DNA from: Minisyncoccota bacterium | GTDB lineage: Bacteria > Patescibacteriota > Minisyncoccia > Phycocordibacterales > UBA12079 | Assembly: GCA_023140255.1 (NCBI GenBank) | Contig: JAGLLX010000003.1 | Span: forward strand, 7,485 to 71,484 | Direction: 5' to 3' | Length of the DNA stretch: 64,000 nucleotides | Part shown: piece after piece, positions 3 to 20,562 of the stretch | Layout of the letters: each line of letters starts with the position of its first letter | Position numbering within the stretch: position 1 is the stretch's first letter | The notes under the pieces: generated by a model | What the model was told of the DNA's origin: nothing | Databases searched by the model: none | Seen by the model: only the letters and a program-made list of their open reading frames with translations | Translations under genes and position numbers: made by a program

Positions 3-1427
3 ATGGTTATAGATTTAAAAACACTAACTATAAAAAAAGCACATGAAGCAATGAAAGCTGGTGACTTTACTGCGCAAGAATTAGCTCAGGCTTATTTAGA
101 TAATATTAACCCAGAATTAAATGCTTTTATTTTAATTTTTGATGATGTTTTAGAACAGTCCAAAAAAGCTGATGAACGATTTAAAAATGGAACAGCTGAA
201 TTACTGACCGGAATTCCAATGGCGATTAAAAATAATATTTTAATTAAAGGTAAAAGAACAACTGCTGGTTCAAAAATTCTAGAAAATTATAAGGCAACTT
301 ATGACGCCACTGTAATTACTAAATTAAAAAAAGTAGGAGCTGTGTTTATTGGGGGAACTAACTTAGATGAATTTGCACACGGATCTTCTACTGAAAATTC
401 AGCTTATGGAGTAACTAAAAATACCTATGATTTAGAAAGAGTGGCTGGTGGTTCTTCTGGGGGTTCTGCTGTGGCTGTAGCTTCAGATATGGCTTTAGTA
501 GCCCTAGGATCAGATACAGGCGGTTCTATTCGTCAACCTGCTAGTTTCAATGGTATTTTAGGTTTAAAGACTACTTATGGAAGAGTTTCTAGAAGTGGAG
601 CTGTAGCTATGGGTTCTTCTTTTGATCAAATTGGCCCTTTTGCAAAAAATATAGAAGATATAAAAATAGTTTACGATTGTATTAAGGGGGAAGATAAAAT
701 GGATAGTACAACTTTGAAAAATGGAAGAACTGAAGAATTAGAACAAAAAATTGATTTAGATAAAAAAATGACAATCGGAATTCCAAGACATTTTTTACAA
801 GAAGGAATTGATGCAGATGTAATGGAAAATTTTGAAGAGTCTATTAAAAAACTGAAAGAAAAAGGATATGAGGTGAAAGAAATTGAATTACCCAATATCA
901 AATATTCTTTAGCCGTTTATTATATTTTGATGCCAGCTGAAGTATCTGCTAATTTATCTCGTTATGATGGAGTGCGTTTTGGTTTTAAGAAAGAAGGAGA
1001 AAACCTTTTAGAAGATTATATGAAAACTAAAGGAGAAGGTTTTGGGAAAGAAACTCGTAGACGAATTATTTTAGGAACATATATTTTATCAGCAGGTTAT
1101 AAAGATGCTTATTATAAGAAAGCTCAAGTGTTAAGAAATATAATAAGAAAAGATTTTGAGAAAGCTTTTTCAGAAGTTGATGTAATTTTAACCCCAACAA
1201 CTCCTAGCCCTGCTTTTGTGATTGGATCCAAAGGAGATGATCCGGTACAAATGTATTTAGGAGATATTTTTACAGTTTCTTCTAACGTTGTAGGAAATCC
1301 AGCTATATCCATTCCTTCTGGTTTTGTAGAAAGAGACGGAAAAAATTTACCAATAGGTTTGCAGATTTTAGCTCCACATTTGTATGAAGATGTATTAGTT
1401 AAAATTTCCGATGATTTTTTAAGTTAA
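3..1427 (+). CDS. gatA: Glutamyl-tRNA(Gln) amidotransferase subunit A (amidase signature family)
   Basis: 474 aa. The amidase signature GGSSGGSAVAVA and the S-cisS-K context (GSDTGGSIRQPAS) are present. The length fits GatA. Confidence 0.85.
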   Translation: MVIDLKTLTIKKAHEAMKAGDFTAQELAQAYLDNINPELNAFILIFDDVLEQSKKADERFKNGTAELLTGIPMAIKNNILIKGKRTTAGSKILENYKATYDATVITKLKKVGAVFIGGTNLDEFAHGSSTENSAYGVTKNTYDLERVAGGSSGGSAVAVASDMALVALGSDTGGSIRQPASFNGILGLKTTYGRVSRSGAVAMGSSFDQIGPFAKNIEDIKIVYDCIKGEDKMDSTTLKNGRTEELEQKIDLDKKMTIGIPRHFLQEGIDADVMENFEESIKKLKEKGYEVKEIELPNIKYSLAVYYILMPAEVSANLSRYDGVRFGFKKEGENLLEDYMKTKGEGFGKETRRRIILGTYILSAGYKDAYYKKAQVLRNIIRKDFEKAFSEVDVILTPTTPSPAFVIGSKGDDPVQMYLGDIFTVSSNVVGNPAISIPSGFVERDGKNLPIGLQILAPHLYEDVLVKISDDFLS

Positions 1428-11452: not shown

Positions 11453-12631
11453 AATAAAAGAATTTTAATATTTTCTACAGCTTATTATCCTTTTGTAGGT
11501 GGAGCTGAGGTGGCCATAAAAGAGATTACTGATCGTACTAGCGGGATAGATTTTCATATGCTTACTGCTAGAATGGATAGGACTCTATCTAAAAAAGAAA
11601 AGATAGGAAATATTTTAGTACATAGAATAGGGTTTGGGATTCCTAAGATTGATAAATTATGTCTTGCTTTTTTTGGATTTTTTTATGCTCAAAGATTACA
11701 AAAACAAAATAAATATTCAGTTGTTTGGGCTATGATGGCAAGTTATGGAGGTTTCGCTGCTTCAAAATTTAAATTTTTAAATCCAGAGATAAATTTTCTA
11801 CTAACTTTGCAGGAAGGAGATAGCCTTGATTATATTGCTAAAAGAACTTACTTTGTTAAAAAACAATTTAAAGATATTTTTATACGAGCTGATAAAATAC
11901 AATGTATTAGTACTTATCTAGCTGAATGGGCAAAAATGATGGGAGCAAGATGTTCTATTGAGGTGATTCCAAACGGAGTAGATATTAAAAACTTTTCACA
12001 AGAATATTCTGAAAAAGAATTATCTGATTTAAAATTAAAATTTAATAAAACACTAGAAGATAAGTTTTTGATTCATACGGGACGTTTAACTTATAAAAAT
12101 GCTGTAGATGATTTAATTCAAGCTCTTATTTATTTACCAGAGAGTATTAAAATATTATTGGTTGGAAAGGGAGAAGACGAAGAAAAATTGAGAGCTATTG
12201 TTCAAGAAAAAGGCTTGAAAAATAGAGTTTATTTTTTAGGATTTATTGATCATAAAGAAATTCCACAATATTTAAGAATTTCTGATATTTTTGTAAGGGC
12301 TTCATTGTCAGAAGGATTAGGAAATTCATTTTTAGAAGCGATGTTAACTTCTTTACCTGTAATTGCTACTCAAGAAGGTGGAATCGTAGATTTTTTGTTT
12401 GATGAAAAAAGAAATCCTAATAAAGAAGTAACAGGTTGGGCTGTTGATTCTAGAAGCCCTGAGCAAATAGCGGAAGCAGTTAAATGTATTTTAAGTAATT
12501 CTGAGAAAGCTAAAAAAGTTACTGATACTGCTAAAAAAATGGTTTTAGAAAAATATAATTGGGATATTTTAGCAAAAGAAATGCAAGAAAAAGTTTTTAA
12601 TAAATTATTTGGAAGCCGGGCTTCCAAATGA
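11447..12631 (+). CDS. Glycosyltransferase family 1 (GT4); the last 7 codons and the stop are supplied by a REP palindrome
   Basis: GT4 EX7E region SEGLGNSFLEAM. The C-terminus ...FGSRASK* is encoded by tttggaagccgggcttccaaaTGA. Confidence 0.75.
   Translation: MSNKRILIFSTAYYPFVGGAEVAIKEITDRTSGIDFHMLTARMDRTLSKKEKIGNILVHRIGFGIPKIDKLCLAFFGFFYAQRLQKQNKYSVVWAMMASYGGFAASKFKFLNPEINFLLTLQEGDSLDYIAKRTYFVKKQFKDIFIRADKIQCISTYLAEWAKMMGARCSIEVIPNGVDIKNFSQEYSEKELSDLKLKFNKTLEDKFLIHTGRLTYKNAVDDLIQALIYLPESIKILLVGKGEDEEKLRAIVQEKGLKNRVYFLGFIDHKEIPQYLRISDIFVRASLSEGLGNSFLEAMLTSLPVIATQEGGIVDFLFDEKRNPNKEVTGWAVDSRSPEQIAEAVKCILSNSEKAKKVTDTAKKMVLEKYNWDILAKEMQEKVFNKLFGSRASK
12608..12628. repeat. REP-like palindrome, copy 1
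   Basis: tttggaagccgggcttccaaa: a 10-bp stem with a 1-nt loop, GC-rich in an AT-rich context. Confidence 0.8.
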
Positions 12632-12643
12632 TATAATTATGTT

Positions 12644-13336
12644 ATGCCAAGAAGAAAAATTACATTTGAAAATGGGGAATTTTATCACATATATAATCGT
12701 GGAGTAGATAAGCGTAATATTGTAAAAAATAAAAATGATATTATGCGAATGTTAGAAAGTCTTGAAGTTTTTAATACAACAGAACTGATTGGAAGTATTT
12801 ATGAAGATACTCGTAGAAAAAGAAATAACCAATTTGGAAGCCGGGCTTCCAAATTGGTTGATATTCTAGCATTTAATATCTTAGATAATCATTATCATCT
12901 TGTTTTAAAACAATTAAGTGATGGAGGTATTAGTAAGTTTATGCATTCTTTTGGAACAGGTTATGCAAAACACTTTAATGAAAAATATGATAGAGTAGGG
13001 TCTTTATTTCAAGGAGTTTTTAAAGCTGAGCACATAAACTCTGATAAATATTTAAGTTATGTAGTTTCTTATGTAAATATTAATCACTTTATTCATAGTT
13101 ATGAATCATTTGGAAGTTCTATCTCTGAATGGGGAATGAGAAGCAGTTTAGAACAATATGTGGATCATAGAAGAGAACATAAGAATAAGTATTTTGAATG
13201 TGATATTGATATAATTAAAAGTAGATTTAAAAATGGAAAGGAATATTTAAAAGAAGCTATTGAAATTTCTAAAAATATTAAGGAGAGAAGAAAAGATAAA
13301 AATTTGGAAGCCGGGCTTCCAAATGATAGTTTTTAA
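12644..13336 (+). CDS. REP-associated tyrosine transposase (RAYT/IS200-like HuH Y1 transposase)
   Basis: N-terminal FYHIYNRGVDKRNIV, the HuH motif NHYHLVL, and downstream Tyr residues (KYLSYVVSY). It is flanked by, and internally contains, REP palindromes. Confidence 0.65.
   Translation: MPRRKITFENGEFYHIYNRGVDKRNIVKNKNDIMRMLESLEVFNTTELIGSIYEDTRRKRNNQFGSRASKLVDILAFNILDNHYHLVLKQLSDGGISKFMHSFGTGYAKHFNEKYDRVGSLFQGVFKAEHINSDKYLSYVVSYVNINHFIHSYESFGSSISEWGMRSSLEQYVDHRREHKNKYFECDIDIIKSRFKNGKEYLKEAIEISKNIKERRKDKNLEAGLPNDSF
12834..12854. repeat. REP-like palindrome, copy 2 (inside the RAYT CDS, in frame: QFGSRASKL)
   Basis: Identical 21-mer. Confidence 0.8.
13304..13324. repeat. REP-like palindrome, copy 3 (end of the RAYT CDS: LEAGLPN)
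   Basis: Identical 21-mer, read in the other frame. Confidence 0.8.
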
Positions 13337-13352
13337 TAAATTAATATAAAAA

Positions 13353-14462
13353 ATGAAAATTTTAATCACAACAGGAATATATCCTCCAGATATTGGAGGG
13401 CCAGCAACTTATTCAAAATTACTTTTTGATAAATTGCCAGAGAGAGGGGTAGAAGTAAAAATTTTATCTTTTGGTGAAGTTCGTAATTTACCTAAAATAA
13501 TTAGACATTTTGTTTATTTTTATAAGATTTTAATAAGAGGGCGGAAGGTAGATGTGATTTATGCTCAAGATCCAGTGAGTGTAGGTTTTCCAACTATGTT
13601 AGCTAATAAGATTTTAAAGAAAAGATTTTTGATTCGGATTGCGGGCGATTATGCTTGGGAACAAGGGGTGCAAAGATTTGAGGTAAAAGATAAGTTAGAT
13701 GATTTTTCTGCTCAAAAAGATAAATATGGTTTTTTTGTTTCTTTATTTAAGAAAATTCAGACTAAGGTGGCTCAATCTGCAGAAAGAATAATTGTACCTA
13801 GTAGATATTTTAAAGGGGTGATAGAAAATTGGGGGATAGATTCAGAAAAAATTAAGGTAATTTATAATGGGATAGATATTTTTAAAAACGTGGAAGCCCG
13901 GCTTCCACGGTTTCCACGGGGTTTAAATAATGGGGGGAAGGTTTTGTTATCAGTTGGAAGACTGGTTCCTTGGAAGGGTTTTGATGTTTTAATTGAATGT
14001 ATGCCTGAAATTTTGAAAAATTATCCTGATTTACAATTGAAAATTGTAGGTGAAGGTCCTCAAAGACAAGAATTAGAAGGCTTGATTAAGAATTTAGATT
14101 TAGAAGAAAATGTTATTTTGACGGGTCAAATTGTTAGAGAAGAATTATTATTATTAAAAAAAGAAGCTGATATCTTTTTATTTAATACTAATTGGGAATC
14201 TTTTTCTTTTGATACTGTGGAATGTATGAATTTGAGATTACCAGTTATTACTACTAAAGTGGGGTCATTACCAGAACTAATTCAGGATGATATAGACGGA
14301 ATTTTAATAGAACCAAATAATAAAAAACAAATATTAAGTGCTATTGTTAAAATTTTTGTAAATGATCAATTTAGAGAGAAAATTATTGAAAACGCCTATA
14401 ATAAATCTAAACAATTTTCTATTGAAAATACTCTAAATAACTTAGAAAAAGTTCTAAAATAA
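13353..14462 (+). CDS. Glycosyltransferase family 1 (GT4)
   Basis: Two Rossmann halves and an E..E motif near the C-terminus. A REP variant is inserted at the inter-domain linker. Confidence 0.7.
   Translation: MKILITTGIYPPDIGGPATYSKLLFDKLPERGVEVKILSFGEVRNLPKIIRHFVYFYKILIRGRKVDVIYAQDPVSVGFPTMLANKILKKRFLIRIAGDYAWEQGVQRFEVKDKLDDFSAQKDKYGFFVSLFKKIQTKVAQSAERIIVPSRYFKGVIENWGIDSEKIKVIYNGIDIFKNVEARLPRFPRGLNNGGKVLLSVGRLVPWKGFDVLIECMPEILKNYPDLQLKIVGEGPQRQELEGLIKNLDLEENVILTGQIVREELLLLKKEADIFLFNTNWESFSFDTVECMNLRLPVITTKVGSLPELIQDDIDGILIEPNNKKQILSAIVKIFVNDQFREKIIENAYNKSKQFSIENTLNNLEKVLK
13889..13909. repeat. REP-like palindrome, variant copy 4 (inside the GT CDS: EARLPRFPRG)
   Basis: cgtggaagcccggcttccacg followed by a partial direct repeat, tttccacgg. 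Confidence 0.7.
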
Positions 14463-14505
14463 ATAATTCATTTTTTTATATTCATTATTTGTTATACTAA
14501 AGATA

Positions 14506-15660
14506 ATGAATATTTTAATGTTAAGTACTGACAAAAAAATATTTGAGGAAAAAAGCTTTGTAAGACAAAGGCTTTTAGACTATTCTGAGTTAGTTGATAA
14601 TTTATGTGTAATCGTTTTGAATTTAGATTCAGAATCTTATAAAAAAATAAGAATCGGTGAAAAATGTACGGTTTATCCAACTAATTCAACAAGTAAATTT
14701 TTATATATTTTTGATGCTATAAAAATTGCTTCAAATATTAAAGAATTTAAGTCTACAAACAAAAAAAAGATAGATTTAATTACTGCTCAAGACGCTTACG
14801 AGACAGGTTTTATTGCTTGGGTTATTTCTAAAAAAATTAAAATTAAACTAGAATTACAAATTCATACTGATTTGTTTAATAGATATTTTAAGAAACATTC
14901 GTTTGCTAATTTTTTTAGATCTACAATAGCTCGGTTTCTTTTGTCACAAGCAAATCATATTAGAGTTGTTTCCAAGAGGATAGAGCAATCTTTACCTAAA
15001 AAAATTCAAAAAAAACCAATTACAGTAGTTCCTATTTTTACAAGTTCAAACTTAATTCAAGTTTCAGCTCCAAACTTTTCTTTAAAAAAGAAATATTCTC
15101 AATTTAAATTTATAATTTTAATGATGTCTCGTTTGGAAAGTGAAAAAAATATTTCTTTAGCTATCTCTGCTATGGAAGATGTTATAGATATTTTCCCTAA
15201 GACTGGATTAATAATAGTGGGGGAAGGTTCACAGAGAAAAAATTTGAGAAGATTGGCTAGAAGAAAAGGTTTAGAAGAAAAAGTAATCTTTAAAAAATGG
15301 ACTGATGACCCTATTTCATATTACAAAACAGCTGATTTGTTTCTTTCAACCTCTAACTATGAGGGTTATGGGCTTTCTTTGGTTGAAGCAATTGTTTCTA
15401 AGTGTCCAATATTAACCACAAAAGTTGGAATAGTAGGAGAAGTCTTGAGTGGGAATAATGCTTTATTGTGTGAAGTAGGAAATGAAAAATGTATTGCTCA
15501 AAGTATAAAAAATGTTCAACAGCATCCTGAATTAGCAGAAGAATTGAAAGAAAAAGCATATAATGATTTTATGAATAAAATTCCGCAAAGCCGAAATGAA
15601 AATTTAGCCTTAATCAAAGAAGGTTGGTCAAAGGCTATAGGAGACGAGTTAAAAGTTTAA
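14506..15660 (+). CDS. Glycosyltransferase family 1 (GT4)
   Basis: YEGYGLSLVEAI is an EX7E-type motif. Confidence 0.7.
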   Translation: MNILMLSTDKKIFEEKSFVRQRLLDYSELVDNLCVIVLNLDSESYKKIRIGEKCTVYPTNSTSKFLYIFDAIKIASNIKEFKSTNKKKIDLITAQDAYETGFIAWVISKKIKIKLELQIHTDLFNRYFKKHSFANFFRSTIARFLLSQANHIRVVSKRIEQSLPKKIQKKPITVVPIFTSSNLIQVSAPNFSLKKKYSQFKFIILMMSRLESEKNISLAISAMEDVIDIFPKTGLIIVGEGSQRKNLRRLARRKGLEEKVIFKKWTDDPISYYKTADLFLSTSNYEGYGLSLVEAIVSKCPILTTKVGIVGEVLSGNNALLCEVGNEKCIAQSIKNVQQHPELAEELKEKAYNDFMNKIPQSRNENLALIKEGWSKAIGDELKV

Positions 15661-15729
15661 GGTCTATAAAGTCTAAAGTTAGTAATTAATTTTGTTAGAT
15701 AAGTTTTAGCTGTATACTTATATTTAAAT

Positions 15730-16131
15730 ATGAATAATTTTGATAAGTGGAATAAAAAGAAAAAAATATTAGATAAAAAAGATATTGATAATTTAAAAAT
15801 CTTTTTTAACAAAAGAGAGATTTGGTGGTGTGCAGTAGGAAATAATATAGGGTTAGAACAAAATGGAAAAGGAGAAAATTTTGAGAGACCTGTTCTGATT
15901 TTTAAAAAATTTAATAAATATGTATTTTTAGGAATTCCTTTAACAACAAAAGAGAAAAATTTAAAGTTGCCTTTTTATTTTAAACTTACAGGAGCAAAGA
16001 TAGAGTCAATAGCTGTTCTTTCGCAGATTAGACTTTTTAGTTCTAAAAGATTGCTTAGGGAAATAGAAACAATAAAACCAGAGTTATTTAAACAGCTTAA
16101 AAACCAATTAAGGATAGTAGAAGATTTATAA
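15730..16131 (+). CDS. MazF/PemK-family endoribonuclease toxin (orphan, with a ~25-aa N-terminal extension)
   Basis: REIWWCAVGNNIGLEQNGKG..ERPVLIF..LGIPLTTKEK...VLSQIRLFSSKRL aligns with the PemK/MazF core (EIW..dP..G.EQ.G.RPvLiv ... P.T). No antitoxin ORF was found within 100 bp. Confidence 0.6.
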   Translation: MNNFDKWNKKKKILDKKDIDNLKIFFNKREIWWCAVGNNIGLEQNGKGENFERPVLIFKKFNKYVFLGIPLTTKEKNLKLPFYFKLTGAKIESIAVLSQIRLFSSKRLLREIETIKPELFKQLKNQLRIVEDL

Positions 16132-16135
16132 AAAA

Positions 16136-16162
16136 GCCCCCCCACCTGTAAGGGTGGGGGGT
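16136..16162 (+). terminator. GC-rich terminator hairpin
   Basis: ccccccacc-tgtaa-gggtggggggt after the MazF-like gene. Confidence 0.55.
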
Positions 16163-16223
16163 CGACTGTCTCCAAAAGGAAACCATTTATACTTTAATAA
16201 TATATTATATATAAAAAAAGTCA

Positions 16224-17285
16224 ATGAAATTACTTATATTAACTCAACGGGTAGATAAAAATGATGATGTCCTTGGTTTTTTCCATGATTGGATAGCTGA
16301 GTTTGCTAAACGTTGTGAAAAAGTAACAGTGATTGCTTTGGGGGTGGGAGAATATGATTTACCAAGAAATGTGAAAGTTCTTTCCCTAGGGAAAGAACTT
16401 TCTAGTCAAATGTCGAAAGTCTATAAAGTCGAAAGTAAGAAAAAATATACTTTTAATTTTTATAGATATATTTGGTCTGAAAGAAATAGTTATGACAATG
16501 TCTTTGTACACATGAACCCTGAATATGTTGTTTTAGGAGGTCTTTTTTGGCGAATAATGGGTAAAAAAATAGGACTTTGGTATACACATAAGTCAGTTGA
16601 TTTAAAACTAAGAATTGCTGAAAAATTAACTCACACCATTTTTTCTGCATCAAAAGAATCTTTTCGTTTAAAAAGTAAAAAATTAAATATTGTGGGGCAT
16701 GGGATTGATATTAATAAATATATATGTAAATCAACATCTACTAGAAAAGAAATTGATATACTTTGTGTTGGAAGAATAAGCGAAATTAAAAATCAAAAAC
16801 TTTTGATAAATGCTGTTGATATTTTAGTTAATCAAAATAAGCAAAGGGATTTAAAGGTTGCTTTGATAGGAACTGCGACTTTATCTAAAGATAAACTTTA
16901 TTTAGATGAATTAAAAAATTTTGTTAATGAAAAAGGATTAAATAACAATATTATATTTGAGGGAAGTGTTCCTAATAAAGATATTCTTAAATATTATTGT
17001 AAATCAAAGATTGCGATCAATTTGTCTCCAACTGGTGGTTTAGATAAGGTTGTTTTAGAATCAATGGCCGTGGGCTTACCTACGATTGTTCTTAACAAAA
17101 CATTTAAAAATATTTTACCTAATAATTTTATAATTTCAGATAAGAATGCTTCTGTGTTAGCTGGGAAAATTAAGGAAATTTTAAAAGAGCCTGTTTTACA
17201 AAAACAATTAACAGAAAAAGTTAAAAGAGATTTTTCTTTACAAGAACTAATTACTAAAGTTCTTAATTTGTATTATGCAAAATAA
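16224..17285 (+). CDS. Glycosyltransferase family 1 (GT4)
   Basis: C-terminal Rossmann half with a GGLDKVVLESMAVGLP motif. Confidence 0.6.
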   Translation: MKLLILTQRVDKNDDVLGFFHDWIAEFAKRCEKVTVIALGVGEYDLPRNVKVLSLGKELSSQMSKVYKVESKKKYTFNFYRYIWSERNSYDNVFVHMNPEYVVLGGLFWRIMGKKIGLWYTHKSVDLKLRIAEKLTHTIFSASKESFRLKSKKLNIVGHGIDINKYICKSTSTRKEIDILCVGRISEIKNQKLLINAVDILVNQNKQRDLKVALIGTATLSKDKLYLDELKNFVNEKGLNNNIIFEGSVPNKDILKYYCKSKIAINLSPTGGLDKVVLESMAVGLPTIVLNKTFKNILPNNFIISDKNASVLAGKIKEILKEPVLQKQLTEKVKRDFSLQELITKVLNLYYAK

Positions 17286-18324
17286 AAAATTAACAATTTG
17301 TTTTTTTGGAAGATATGATAATAAGTATTCTAGGAACCGTATTTTAATTAAAGGGTTATTAGAAAATGATGTAAATGTAATTGAATGTAGAACAGAATTA
17401 AAAGGAGTTATTAAATATTTTGATTTAATTAAAAAACATTGGAAGATTCGTAAGGAATACGATGTTTTATTTGTAGCTTTTCCGGGGTGGCATTCCGTTG
17501 TTTTAGCTAAGTTTTTAACAAGGAAACCTGTAATTTTTGATGCGTTTGTTTCTATTTATGACTCAACTGTTTTTGATAGAAAAAATACTAAAGAAGATTC
17601 ATTAAAAGCAAAATATTTTTGGTTTATAGATTGGATCTCTTGTAAATTGGCAGATAAAGTTATCTTAGACACTAATGAGCATATAAAATATTTTGTTCAA
17701 GAATTTGGAATTAAAAAAGAAAAATTTGAGAGAATATTTGTTGGGTCTTTTGCAGAAACTTTTTCATTTCCTAAAATAGAAAGAAAAAATAATAAATTTA
17801 TTGTAAGTTTTTATGGGTTTCTTATTCCCCTGCAAGGGGTTAGATACATAATAGATACAGCTAAACTTTTAGAAAAATATGATGATATCCAATTTAATCT
17901 CATTGGAACAAAAATAAAGAAAAGATACCAAAATGAGGTATTTTCTAATATTAATTTTATAGAAGATCGATCCTATAAAGATCTTTTAGGTTTATTAAAA
18001 CAGTCAAGTGTATGTTTGGGCATCTTTGGAGATACTGATAAAACACAAAGAGTAATTCCTAATAAAGTTTTTGATTGTGTTGCTTTAAAAAAGCCAGTAA
18101 TTACAGCTGACACTTTAGCTATTAAAGAGTTATTTGATGAAGATGATTTATATCTAATACCTCCTGTTAATTCTAAAAGATTAGCAAAAGCTATTTTAGA
18201 GTTGAGAAATGATTATGATTTAATGGAAAAAATAGCCCAAAATGGTTACAATAGATTTAATCAAAATACAAAGATACAAAGTTTAGGGGAACGATTAAAA
18301 GAAATATCATTAACCTTGTTATAA
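17275..18324 (+). CDS. Putative glycosyltransferase (GT-B-like)
   Basis: 349 aa. It sits in the GT operon with overlapping start and stop codons. There is weak GT-B-like patterning but no clear EX7E motif. Confidence 0.4.
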   Translation: MQNKKLTICFFGRYDNKYSRNRILIKGLLENDVNVIECRTELKGVIKYFDLIKKHWKIRKEYDVLFVAFPGWHSVVLAKFLTRKPVIFDAFVSIYDSTVFDRKNTKEDSLKAKYFWFIDWISCKLADKVILDTNEHIKYFVQEFGIKKEKFERIFVGSFAETFSFPKIERKNNKFIVSFYGFLIPLQGVRYIIDTAKLLEKYDDIQFNLIGTKIKKRYQNEVFSNINFIEDRSYKDLLGLLKQSSVCLGIFGDTDKTQRVIPNKVFDCVALKKPVITADTLAIKELFDEDDLYLIPPVNSKRLAKAILELRNDYDLMEKIAQNGYNRFNQNTKIQSLGERLKEISLTLL

Positions 18325-18326
18325 AA

Positions 18327-19472
18327 ATGAAATTAATTTATTTATCAAATTATAATATCCCAACTCAAAATGCGCTTGGTATTCAAATTACTCAAATGTG
18401 TGTCGCTTTCACTAAAGAAAAAATTGATGTTGAACTGATTGTTCCTAAACAAAAGAACAAGAACAAGAATTTATTCGAATATTATGGTATTGAGAAGTCT
18501 TTTAAAGTTAAAGAAATTTATAGACCTGATTTACTTAAGTTTGGTAAATTTGGTTTTTTAATTCAAACAATCTTTTTTTTATTGAGAGTAAAAATATATT
18601 TATATTCTCAAAAATACGATTATCTTTATACTAGAGAACAACTAACGGGGTTATTTTTTAAAGATTTTATTTATGAAGTCCATAACCTTTCTGATAAAAT
18701 AACTTTTTTCCATAAAGCATTGTTTAAAAAAGCTTTTAAAGTAATAGCTATAACTAATTTTATAAAAAAAGATTTAATTGAAAAAGGAGGGATTTCAATT
18801 GAAAAAATAGTAGTATCACCAGATGCTGTTGATTTAAATAAATTTAATTTGAATATAGCACAAGATCAAGCTAGAAATAAATTAGAATTACCTAAAAACA
18901 AAACTATTATTGGTTATATTGGAAAATATGTTACCTTTGGAAAAGGAAATAAAGGAGTAGATGATTTAGTAAAAGTATTTCCTGAAATTTTAAAATCTAA
19001 TCCGCAAGTTTTTTTGTTAATAGTTGGAGTTGGGGAAAAGAACATAATTAAAGTAGAAAAATTATTTAAAAATTCAGGAATTAATAATCGTAATTATAAG
19101 ATAATAGCTTATTTACCATATGGAGATGTGATTTATTCTTTGAGAGCATCTGATATTTTAATTATGAATTATTCTAGATTTCAATATCATACTTATTATA
19201 CTTCACCTATGAAAATGTTTGAATATATGGCTAGTGGTAGGCCTATTATTGCTTCAGATTTACCGTCAGTTAGAGAAATACTTGATGAAAATAATTGTCT
19301 ATTTATTAAGCCTGATAATATTAAATCTTTAGAGGATTGTATTAAAAAACTTTTGCAGGATAAAGATTTTTCTGATAAAATTTCTAAGCAGGCATATAAA
19401 GATGTGCAAAATTATACTTGGGATAAAAGAGTTAGACAAATATTAATTTTTTTAAAAAAATATGAAAAATAA
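18327..19472 (+). CDS. Glycosyltransferase family 1 (GT4)
   Basis: KMFEYMASGRPIIAS is an EX7E-type motif. Confidence 0.65.
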   Translation: MKLIYLSNYNIPTQNALGIQITQMCVAFTKEKIDVELIVPKQKNKNKNLFEYYGIEKSFKVKEIYRPDLLKFGKFGFLIQTIFFLLRVKIYLYSQKYDYLYTREQLTGLFFKDFIYEVHNLSDKITFFHKALFKKAFKVIAITNFIKKDLIEKGGISIEKIVVSPDAVDLNKFNLNIAQDQARNKLELPKNKTIIGYIGKYVTFGKGNKGVDDLVKVFPEILKSNPQVFLLIVGVGEKNIIKVEKLFKNSGINNRNYKIIAYLPYGDVIYSLRASDILIMNYSRFQYHTYYTSPMKMFEYMASGRPIIASDLPSVREILDENNCLFIKPDNIKSLEDCIKKLLQDKDFSDKISKQAYKDVQNYTWDKRVRQILIFLKKYEK

Positions 19473-20562
19473 AATGAAAATAAATTTTTTTGTTCCCCAT
19501 TTAGAAATATCAGGGGGTATTAGAGTTGCTTTAAATTATGCTCACTTTTTAGCAGAAAAAGGGCATGATGTTCAAGTTGTTTTTCAACATAAAAATTACA
19601 GAAAAAGGATTAAAAATATCTTAGAATTTAAAAGGGGAAGTATTAGAGAATTTTTTGATAACAAACCATATTGGTATAGACATTTAAAAGCTAATATAGC
19701 TTATAAACCTAAAATAAATAATGAAACTTTAGCTGATGCTGACATTTTAGTAGCTATGGATTATTCTAAGGTAAAATTATTTGATGTTCTTGATAGAAAA
19801 AAGGGTGTAAGATTTGAATTTATAATGCATGATGAAAGATTATATCATGGTGATAAAGAAGATATCAATAAAGTTTACAAAAGAGATGTAAATAAAATAT
19901 GTGTTTCAAGTTGGTTACAAGGAGTTATCAAGAAAGATTTTAATCAAGAAAGTGATGTTTTAATTAATCCCATAGATACTGAATTATTTTTTCAGGAAAA
20001 ATCTGATAAAAAGAAAGAAAATGATGAAATAATAATAACAATGATGCATCATAATTATGAATGGAAGGGGGTAGAAGATGGAGTCAAAATTTTCAATAAA
20101 GTCAAAAAAGAAACAGGAAAGAATTTGAAATTAGTATTATTTGGTTGTCGATTTAAAAAAATAGATATTCAATATGACGAATATTATTATGATTCAAAAC
20201 AGGAAGATATTCGGAAAATTTATTCAGATTCTGATATTTTTTTGTGTACTTCTGAATGGGAAGGGTTAGGATTACCCGCTATGGAAGCTATGTGTTGTAA
20301 AACTGCGGTAGTAACTTATGATACAGGGGGGTCTAGAGATTATGCTTTTGATAATGATACTGCTTTTGTGGCTCAGCATAGCGATTTAAGAGATTTAGAA
20401 AATAAATTAAAAGAAGCGGTTATTTATTCAGAAAAAAGAGATCAAATAGCTCAGAATGGTTATAAATTTATTACTCAAAAAATTGATACATGGGCTGAAA
20501 GTGTAGAAAAAATGGAGAAAATTTTTAATAATAAGTTGGCAAAACGATCAAATGAAAGCTAA
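19462..20562 (+). CDS. Glycosyltransferase family 1 (GT4)
   Basis: SEWEGLGLPAMEAM. Confidence 0.7.
   Translation: MKNKMKINFFVPHLEISGGIRVALNYAHFLAEKGHDVQVVFQHKNYRKRIKNILEFKRGSIREFFDNKPYWYRHLKANIAYKPKINNETLADADILVAMDYSKVKLFDVLDRKKGVRFEFIMHDERLYHGDKEDINKVYKRDVNKICVSSWLQGVIKKDFNQESDVLINPIDTELFFQEKSDKKKENDEIIITMMHHNYEWKGVEDGVKIFNKVKKETGKNLKLVLFGCRFKKIDIQYDEYYYDSKQEDIRKIYSDSDIFLCTSEWEGLGLPAMEAMCCKTAVVTYDTGGSRDYAFDNDTAFVAQHSDLRDLENKLKEAVIYSEKRDQIAQNGYKFITQKIDTWAESVEKMEKIFNNKLAKRSNES

Follow-up and report, generated by a model that had tools for sequence, protein, structure and literature searches.

A MazF/PemK-family toxin gene of candidate phyla radiation bacteria is accompanied by a convergent small-RNA gene, a candidate RNA antitoxin

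In type II toxin-antitoxin (TA) systems of the MazEF/PemIK kind (Kis-Kid; EndoA-EndoAI of Bacillus subtilis), the gene of the endoribonuclease toxin is adjoined by a co-oriented gene for a small protein antitoxin, AbrB-like or of the ribbon-helix-helix (RHH) type. In type III systems (ToxIN, CptIN, TenpIN), an endoribonuclease toxin of the Kid/MazF kind stands next to a small structured RNA; these antitoxins are tandem direct repeats that lie upstream on the same strand, are co-transcribed with the toxin and are processed by it. The toxins of type I systems with a convergent, 3′-overlapping RNA (txpA/RatA, bsrG/SR4, par Fst/RNAII) are membrane peptides of fewer than 60 aa. Two further type I systems, SymE/SymR and RalR/RalA, are a precedent for nuclease toxins under small-RNA control: SymR overlaps the 5′ end and ribosome-binding site, and RalA pairs in trans with the help of Hfq. 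A mazF gene without adjacent mazE is known from Myxococcus xanthus, where MazF is controlled by the unlinked protein MrpC. Finally, the pemK RNA motif RF02913, catalogued in Rfam as a cis-regulatory element, lies in the 5′ untranslated region (UTR) of pemK genes in Firmicutes. Here, we describe a MazF/PemK-family toxin gene at positions 15730–16131 (plus strand) of a 64,000-nt stretch of DNA (hereafter the window) from a Minisyncoccota bacterium (genome GC content ~26%; assembly GCA_023140255.1, contig JAGLLX010000003.1, positions 7,485–71,484, forward strand). This gene had been taken for an orphan toxin in a reading of the window's letters, which we refer to as the original prediction. We find that a convergent small-RNA gene accompanies its subfamily almost everywhere, so the label orphan is probably wrong. 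Judging by sequence signals, a MazF-family gene and a gene for a small structured RNA form a conserved mobile pair, and we lean, by a little, toward reading the locus as a compact, mobile, two-gene TA-like module in which the antitoxin is RNA and not protein.

The pair resembles each of the described systems in part. With MazEF/PemIK it shares the PF02452 family, the fold, the positions of the catalytic Arg and Thr, small size and mobility, but no MazE/PemI-type gene adjoins the toxin gene in any of 91 loci, where the partner is an RNA gene instead, and the toxin has a conserved 28-aa N-terminal helix and a β1–β2 loop that is longer by five residues. With type III it shares a Kid/MazF-kind endoribonuclease next to a small structured RNA, the inhibition being proposed in our case. 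Unlike the type III antitoxins, however, the RNA is single-copy, has its own promoter and terminator and lies downstream on the opposite strand, and the toxin belongs to PF02452 rather than to the ToxN/AbiQ, CptN or TenpN families. With the 3′-overlapping type I modules it shares convergence, a terminator at the toxin 3′ end, a strong RNA promoter and small module size, and at the DNA level the convergent RNA does overlap the toxin 3′ end. The toxin, in contrast, is a 133-aa soluble ribonuclease (RNase), and the RNA is far shorter (~50–60 nt), tetraloop-capped and conserved across phylum-level distances. The toxin folds of SymE and RalR differ from that of the present toxin, whose translation-initiation region shows no enriched complementarity to the RNA. 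RF02913 is likewise associated with pemK-family genes as a conserved RNA structure, whereas our element is found at the toxin 3′ end, as a gene in its own right on the opposite strand. The M. xanthus gene and other solo toxins have the missing mazE in common with our locus, which differs in having a linked, dedicated RNA gene.

The open reading frame (ORF) starts with ATG, ends with a TAA stop at 16129–16131 and encodes 133 aa, with coordinates and translation exactly as originally given. The original prediction had recognized the PemK/MazF core by eye, and the corresponding hidden Markov model agrees: the protein matches Pfam PF02452 (PemK_toxin) with E=2.8e-14 and 53.7 bits against a gathering cutoff of 23.1. 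This match, the only one in Pfam, spans aa 29–130 and profile positions 3–108 of 109. The protein is 100% identical to a database entry (P0001) from a Candidatus Pacebacteria metagenome-assembled genome, which NCBI names “type II toxin-antitoxin system PemK/MazF family toxin”. It does not reach equivalog level (NCBIfam NF007386, MazF, 17.2 bits against a cutoff of 120) and has no match among the defence-system models of PADLOC. An AlphaFold2 (AF2) model of the toxin (predicted local distance difference test score 81) has seven strands and a C-terminal helix, and its top 50 Foldseek matches in the PDB are all MazF structures, including those of Staphylococcus aureus, Mycobacterium tuberculosis, B. 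subtilis and Escherichia coli (probability 1.00, target-normalised TM-score 0.65–0.78). The best match of a profile built from 49 homologues is B. subtilis EndoA/YdcE (E=6.5e-6).

We aligned the toxin to the MazF structures 1ne8/4mdx. Arg53 of the FERP motif (codon 15886–15888) falls on catalytic Arg25 of B. subtilis MazF (Arg29 in E. coli), and Thr72 of the PLTT motif (15943–15945) on catalytic Thr48 (Thr52 in E. coli); the catalytic role of the Arg is known from MazF structures. Arg53 is invariant in both subfamily alignments, and Thr72 is at least 90% conserved in one (49 homologues) and invariant in the other; the 49-homologue alignment has 15 invariant columns, including FERP. The Pfam match, the MazF fold and the aligned Arg and Thr place the toxin in the PF02452 family, and the sequence and the structure model together indicate that it is a predicted endoribonuclease of the MazF/PemK fold with both catalytic residues conserved.

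A lysine-rich N-terminal extension, also reported at the outset, is present and is conserved across the subfamily. It comprises aa 1–28 (15730–15813), lies outside the Pfam domain, contains 9 lysines and is Lys/Trp-rich with the motif FDxWNxxKK. Across the 49 homologues, W7 never varies and conservation of F4 and K11 reaches at least 90%, and AF2 predicts a helix at aa 4–16. This conservation indicates that the extension is real and no annotation artefact. We infer that it is a candidate RNA-binding addition to the toxin.

No protein partner was found. The 69-bp gap upstream of the toxin gene (15661–15729) contains no ORF, and none of the small ORFs overlapping or flanking the toxin gene, whichever their strand, has a Pfam match at a cutoff as loose as E≤10, which bears out the earlier statement that a small protein antitoxin is missing here. 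Six-frame scans of the flanks of 9 loci gave no shared ORF. All-against-all BLASTP of 672 neighbouring ORFs (40–200 aa, within ~500 bp, 91 loci) gave no family present in more than three loci, and those loci were closely related; none of the homologues on long contigs has an antitoxin-sized protein partner. The six-frame scans, the Pfam searches of small ORFs and the 91-locus BLASTP together led us to reject a hidden protein antitoxin next to the toxin gene. The adjacent, co-oriented small antitoxin gene that characterizes type II systems is thus absent, and the toxin is, as regards proteins, solitary consistently across loci.

The first clue to a different kind of partner came from the six-frame scan, in which spurious ORF translations 3′ of the stop codon were alike between loci. 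When read on the gene strand in 80 loci, the 110 nt after the stop contain an A-run, a variable GC-rich hairpin, the sequence (T)CTCGGAGGCCGAAGCC, ATTTGTA, a reversed TATAAT-like box and, ~17 nt further on, a reversed TTGAC. Read on the opposite strand, the same DNA has the order of a small-RNA gene: a −35 box, a 17-nt spacer, an extended −10 box, a start-site A ~6 nt later, and then 5′-AUAAAU-GGCUUCGGCC-UCCGA, a hairpin of 8–11 bp and GAUUUU.

To follow this element we built covariance models. The seed consisted of 8 length-uniform, gap-free sequences chosen by hand, since an alignment made with MAFFT gave poor structural register. The search space was the window plus 85 loci (483 kb), in which copies of the toxin gene were identified by tblastn. 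A full-length match on the opposite strand at the toxin 3′ end was obtained for 81 of the 92 gene copies. Two of the 11 misses are cut by contig ends, and the other nine carry divergent versions that were recovered by a second model or by direct reading. Second toxin paralogues within a locus have their own RNA element. Only two confident matches in the 483 kb lie away from a toxin gene. In a hold-out set of 11 loci fetched afterwards, 8 were positive; among the misses, L094 is truncated by a contig end and L091 is positive by eye.

One of the copies without a toxin gene beside it is a confident match (42.6 bits, model R2) at 309–365 (+) of locus L044; it is followed, after ~50 nt and in the same orientation, by a 340-aa Fic/DOC-like gene. 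This copy may be a solo “antitoxin” RNA or the remnant of a decayed module. Locus L042, the only such case seen, has tandem elements (1056–1108 and 1165–1209, both on the minus strand) after one toxin gene.

The structure of the element is well conserved. Across 56 confident matches, 98.2% of paired positions are standard pairs, and compensatory double changes occur in 12 of the 13 pairs. The covariation score was 0.638, compared to 0.168 ± 0.014 for shuffles (0 of 500 reached it) and 0.06–0.10 for slid controls. Since the alignment had been fitted to the model, these values are somewhat inflated. Base pairs take up about three quarters of the RNA. The leader, hairpin 1 and the linker (AUAAAUGGCUUCGGCCUCCGA) are conserved in sequence between lineages whose toxins are ~45% identical, and the apical stem of the terminator drifts. 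We rejected the idea that the RNA encodes a small peptide, as the AUG of AAAUGG gives way to GUG, ACG or AAG in some copies and the helices show covariation.

The element could in principle act as DNA, for example as an attC-like recombination or insertion site, or as a 3′-UTR stabilizer of the plus-strand transcript, which would leave the toxin a true orphan. It always sits at the 3′ boundary of a mobile cassette, and hairpins can be drawn on both strands, as such a reading would have it. The strands are not equivalent, however. Within the helices, we counted 28 G·U pairs on the opposite strand versus 3 A·C pairs, the latter being those that would become G·U if the gene strand were the RNA. 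On the minus strand, 41 of 56 copies carry a UNCG loop on hairpin 1 and 30 of 56 a GNRA loop on the terminator, compared to 0 and 5 when the plus strand is read. These loops, the G·U excess and the T-run on the minus strand identify the minus strand as the RNA strand. The promoter, when anchored on hairpin 1 in the 56 loci, shows a positionally conserved −35 TTGAC, extended −10 TGnTAtaaT and start-site A, and neither these features nor the conserved 17-nt spacer would have a role in a recombination site. Moreover, the loci form no cassette arrays, and neither an integrase nor a recombinase regularly accompanies them. An integron attC-like site is ruled against by the promoter geometry, the strand asymmetry and the missing integrases and cassette arrays, and we consider it very improbable that the element is anything other than an RNA gene.

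At the 5′ end of the toxin gene, we found no conserved promoter or Shine-Dalgarno sequence (<0.3 bits per position). About 12 homologues have a TATAAT-like box 5–10 nt before the toxin ATG and no Shine-Dalgarno sequence (among them those of L001, L014, L018, L025, L047, L051, L068, L073, L081 and L085), and the window has TATATT at 15719–15724, 5 nt before its toxin ATG. In the ~12 homologues, this combination suggests that the toxin mRNAs may be leaderless.

In the window, the predicted small RNA is ~61 nt long and runs from 16190 to 16130 on the minus strand, its start at ~16190 being set by promoter geometry. The sigma-70-type promoter (16224–16197) has a −35 box TTGACT (16224–16219), a 16-nt spacer and a −10 box TATTAT (16202–16197), with 10 of 12 matches in the promoter scan, and its −35 box reaches into the ATG (at 16224) of the next glycosyltransferase gene. 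The RNA itself would read 5′-AUAAAUGG-UUUCC-UUUU-GGAGAC-AGUCGA, followed by the terminator hairpin and GCUUUUUU. Hairpin 1 (16183–16168; GUUUCC-UUUU-GGAGAC) has 6 bp including one U·G pair and is, in the clade around the window, a version of the canonical GGC-UUCG-GCC hairpin. The terminator hairpin (16161–16138) has 9 bp, 8 of them G-C, and the terminator scan reports it for the minus strand alone, with GCTTTTTTAT as its tail. The U-run (16135–16130) overlaps the toxin stop codon, and the last two U of the RNA are complementary to the AA of TAA; there is no plus-strand terminator ahead of the RNA gene. The minus-strand fold has z=−4.2, and covariance model R1, at default filters, matches 16130–16193 (−) and nothing else in the window.

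It had been stated that a GC-rich terminator follows the toxin gene. The GC-rich hairpin is indeed there, at 16138–16161, but its T-run is on the minus strand and the plus strand has an A-run before the hairpin. With a T-run on the minus strand only, this hairpin is not a canonical terminator for the toxin gene; it terminates the predicted RNA that approaches from the other side. Because the partner is an RNA gene, the ORF-based check proposed with the original prediction could not find it. The explanations offered there for a solitary toxin (a distant antitoxin, post-translational control or a domesticated RNase) keep some probability but are no longer needed given the linked RNA gene.

The canonical covariance models gave the window RNA only 16–18 bits, level with generic terminators in the window. 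As they do not separate this variant from such terminators, we compared its clade directly. A metagenome scan for close relatives yielded only 6 loci. In L001, L003, L090, L096, L097 and L098 (proteins ~69–83% identical), direct reading gave an architecture identical to that of the window. The promoter is TTGAC(A/T), exactly 16 nt and TAnnAT. The RNA then follows with 6 nt after the −10 box, AUAAAUGGUUUCC-loop-GGA(A/G)AC, a linker ending in GA, the terminator stem and a U-run that abuts the stop codon. The terminator stems differ in sequence between loci through compensatory changes, and in the alignment of the seven members 97% of positions are paired and 5 pairs show double changes. The helix of hairpin 1 is invariant, with the U·G pair in 2 of 7 members, where the plus-strand equivalent would be C·A. 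The unit was found by direct reading in 7 of 8 clade loci; in the eighth, L099, read-through extends the toxin ORF at the C-terminal end, and the element lies within this extension.

Such read-through was also seen elsewhere. For database proteins P0053, P0079, P0092, P0106 and P0034 (e.g., L007 4001–4468 and L099 2501–3046), no stop precedes the RNA gene and the annotated ORF reads through it. The predicted tails would contain sequences such as “...SPLAGAFSEAEATN...”, in which SEAEA is the translation of the conserved TCGGAGGCCGAAGCC box.

We found no previous record of the RNA element. Rfam (release 15), searched at gathering score against the window and 16 loci and at E≤10 on the canonical element, gave only tRNAs and noise, leaving the small RNA unmatched; RF02913 in particular was matched neither at gathering score in the window and the 16 loci nor at E≤10 around the canonical element. 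We found no paper describing the element in the searchable literature. Taken by itself, the toxin protein is unremarkable and has been annotated before; what is new, measured against Rfam and the searchable literature, is the linked RNA gene, which is widespread.

An exhaustive profile search (E≤1e-30) placed the toxin subfamily in 471 clusters at 50% identity. Its relatives occur in at least 587 species-representative genomes, nearly all of the candidate phyla radiation (CPR, or Patescibacteria), including Saccharibacteria, Paceibacterota, Gracilibacteria, Peregrinibacteria and the Kaiser-, Nomura-, Magasanik-, Doudna- and Kerfeldbacteria. Contexts range from between transketolase halves, next to galT, near ftsZ and beside thyA/SHMT to neighbourhoods with ribosomal protein L11 or a restriction-modification system. 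Proteins 78–83% identical to the window toxin occur in unrelated contexts (in L003 between the transketolase halves, in L096 behind an HTH_17 gene), indicating that the cassette moves as a unit. Viral contigs gave one protein match and no match to the RNA pattern.

This distribution bears on the possibility that the protein is a domesticated, housekeeping or regulatory endoribonuclease of CPR bacteria, with the RNA as its substrate, its cofactor or an unrelated co-regulated RNA. A housekeeping role would suit a protein found in at least 587 species-level genomes, often in housekeeping operons (in L003 the toxin gene follows the transketolase N half after a 2-bp gap), with no defence-system model match and essentially absent from viral contigs. 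Against this, position varies even between ~80% identical proteins, which is typical of mobile selfish modules, and some genomes have several diverged copies, each with its own RNA. The strong RNA promoter facing a signal-poor toxin 5′ end is, furthermore, the asymmetry expected of an antitoxin and a toxin. We regard domestication as improbable, although less so than an element without an RNA product.

Two observations concern the DNA around individual copies. In several loci a tRNA gene is found no more than a few hundred bp from the module, namely in L001 (3423–3566), the downstream flank of L091, L024 (3154–3224) and L077 (3059–3143), and L001 also has a serine recombinase; this would fit mobile DNA that integrates next to tRNA genes in some lineages. 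In L006 (4001–4462; ENA ERZ26695388, a 755-kb contig), the toxin gene has TGA at four conserved Trp positions (W7, W32, W33 and one more), at each of which the database protein P0106 has W. TGA at conserved Trp positions indicates that this organism reads TGA as Trp (code 4-like) and not as Gly (code 25, as in Gracilibacteria/Absconditabacteria).

If the RNA is an antitoxin, the module would work as follows. Transcription from its strong promoter would supply the small RNA in excess, and the toxin would be expressed with neither a promoter nor a ribosome-binding site that is conserved. As long as the RNA is present, it would keep the toxin harmless. Upon loss of the RNA through decay, transcription shut-off or loss of the locus, the RNase would be freed to cut cellular RNA, resulting in growth arrest.

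For the way in which the RNA acts, we tentatively favour a mode in which the structured RNA binds the toxin dimer directly, as in type III ToxIN, with the N-terminal helix perhaps aiding recognition. Four features of the predicted pair point in this direction. First, the leader, hairpin 1 and linker are conserved in sequence across lineages, which a cis-antisense RNA does not need. Second, 4-nt tetraloops are poor at starting antisense pairing. Third, the subfamily has a unique conserved Lys/Trp-rich helix. Fourth, genomes with two modules (L006, L025 and L069) carry two different RNA variants. We note that tandem repeats of the ToxI kind were not found, the only repetitive sequence being A-rich low-complexity sequence inside the ORF.

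The second mode that we considered is type I-like. A toxin mRNA that reads through the RNA gene would carry the perfect complement of the RNA, and a cis-antisense duplex of ~50–60 bp over the stop codon and 3′ UTR might lead to mRNA decay, for example by RNase III cleavage, or to blocked translation termination, with no contact between the RNA and the protein. The convergent layout, the U-tail overlapping the stop codon and the parallel to the 3′-overlap loci txpA/RatA, bsrG/SR4 and par Fst/RNAII all suit this mode. Read-through is itself likely, since no U-run follows the hairpin on the plus strand, and many homologue ORFs run through the RNA gene, as their SEAEA tails show. A cis-antisense RNA is, however, complementary by construction, which leaves the conservation of leader, hairpin 1 and linker across CPR classes without a purpose, and the closed UNCG and GNRA tetraloops and the extent of pairing in the RNA disfavour fast duplex initiation. 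In addition, a stable RNase toxin would be poorly controlled by mRNA-level repression alone. We consider antisense action as the sole mode rather unlikely, but antisense pairing and direct binding may operate together. Antisense control of translation initiation in trans, by comparison, found no support, as the energies computed for duplexes of the RNA, in its conserved 5′ part, with the region −60 to +40 of the toxin gene were no better than those of control windows (median percentile 0.83).

Several points weigh against an RNA antitoxin that binds its toxin. The transcript, its ends and its abundance are read from sequence signals, and the RNA in the window is a divergent variant whose assignment depends on its position, its architecture and six close relatives. 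The pairing values carry the inflation mentioned above. The sequence conservation of the RNA could reflect its promoter-proximal region, RNase processing or another binding partner, and a gene inside housekeeping operons also fits a domesticated function. Neither group of RNA-antitoxin systems is an exact precedent: the upstream, same-strand tandem repeats of known type III antitoxins are absent here, and known type I toxins are mostly small membrane peptides.

It is possible, though in our estimate somewhat doubtful, that a MazF/PemK toxin bound and neutralized by a convergent, independently transcribed, tetraloop-capped RNA of ~50 nt represents a TA class outside types I, II and III, mobile and spread over hundreds of CPR species. 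Annotated genomes abound in solo toxin genes, which as a rule are written off as decayed modules or credited with distant antitoxins. Here, a large and seemingly solitary MazF subfamily has a strictly linked partner that is invisible to ORF-based annotation, being a very small RNA gene read from the other strand. Should the RNA prove to be an antitoxin, the best-studied toxin fold would gain an RNA-antitoxin partnership that is absent from the searchable literature, and the genome-reduced, largely CRISPR-less, episymbiotic CPR bacteria would gain a candidate RNA-controlled module for growth arrest or defence. Part of the long-noted excess of solo MazF toxins would then be explained. For annotation, the lesson is to check which strand bears the U-tail when a GC-rich hairpin follows an apparently orphan toxin gene.

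The whole cassette of toxin gene and convergent small-RNA gene spans 563 bp (15661–16223) and exactly fills the gap between two glycosyltransferase genes, the upstream one with its stop at 15660 and the downstream one with its start at 16224. The original prediction had placed the toxin gene among glycosyltransferase genes on the same strand, and Pfam bears this out: both flanking genes and at least three further genes downstream are glycosyltransferases of families GT1/GT4 on the toxin strand. At least six consecutive same-strand GT1/GT4 genes occupy 13353–20562, two of which also match PF20706 (“GT4 in conflict systems”) with 47.5 bits (above the 26-bit cutoff) and 22 bits (below it).

The glycosyltransferase cluster holds two insertions, the toxin-RNA cassette and a second element. 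Four copies of a GC-rich palindrome of 19 nt, TTGGAAGCCSGGCTTCCAA, are packed into 1.3 kb (12609–12627, 12834–12852, 13304–13322 and 13890–13908; chance expectation 0). The copies surround and sit inside a 230-aa ORF at 12644–13336 (+), and three of the four lie within annotated coding sequence. This ORF has a weak match to the IS200-like Y1 transposase domain PF01797 (29 bits) and scores 27 bits, below the cutoff of 80, with the model for REP (repetitive extragenic palindromic)-associated tyrosine transposases (RAYTs). Palindromes and ORF together look like a REP/RAYT-like element in the glycosyltransferase cluster.

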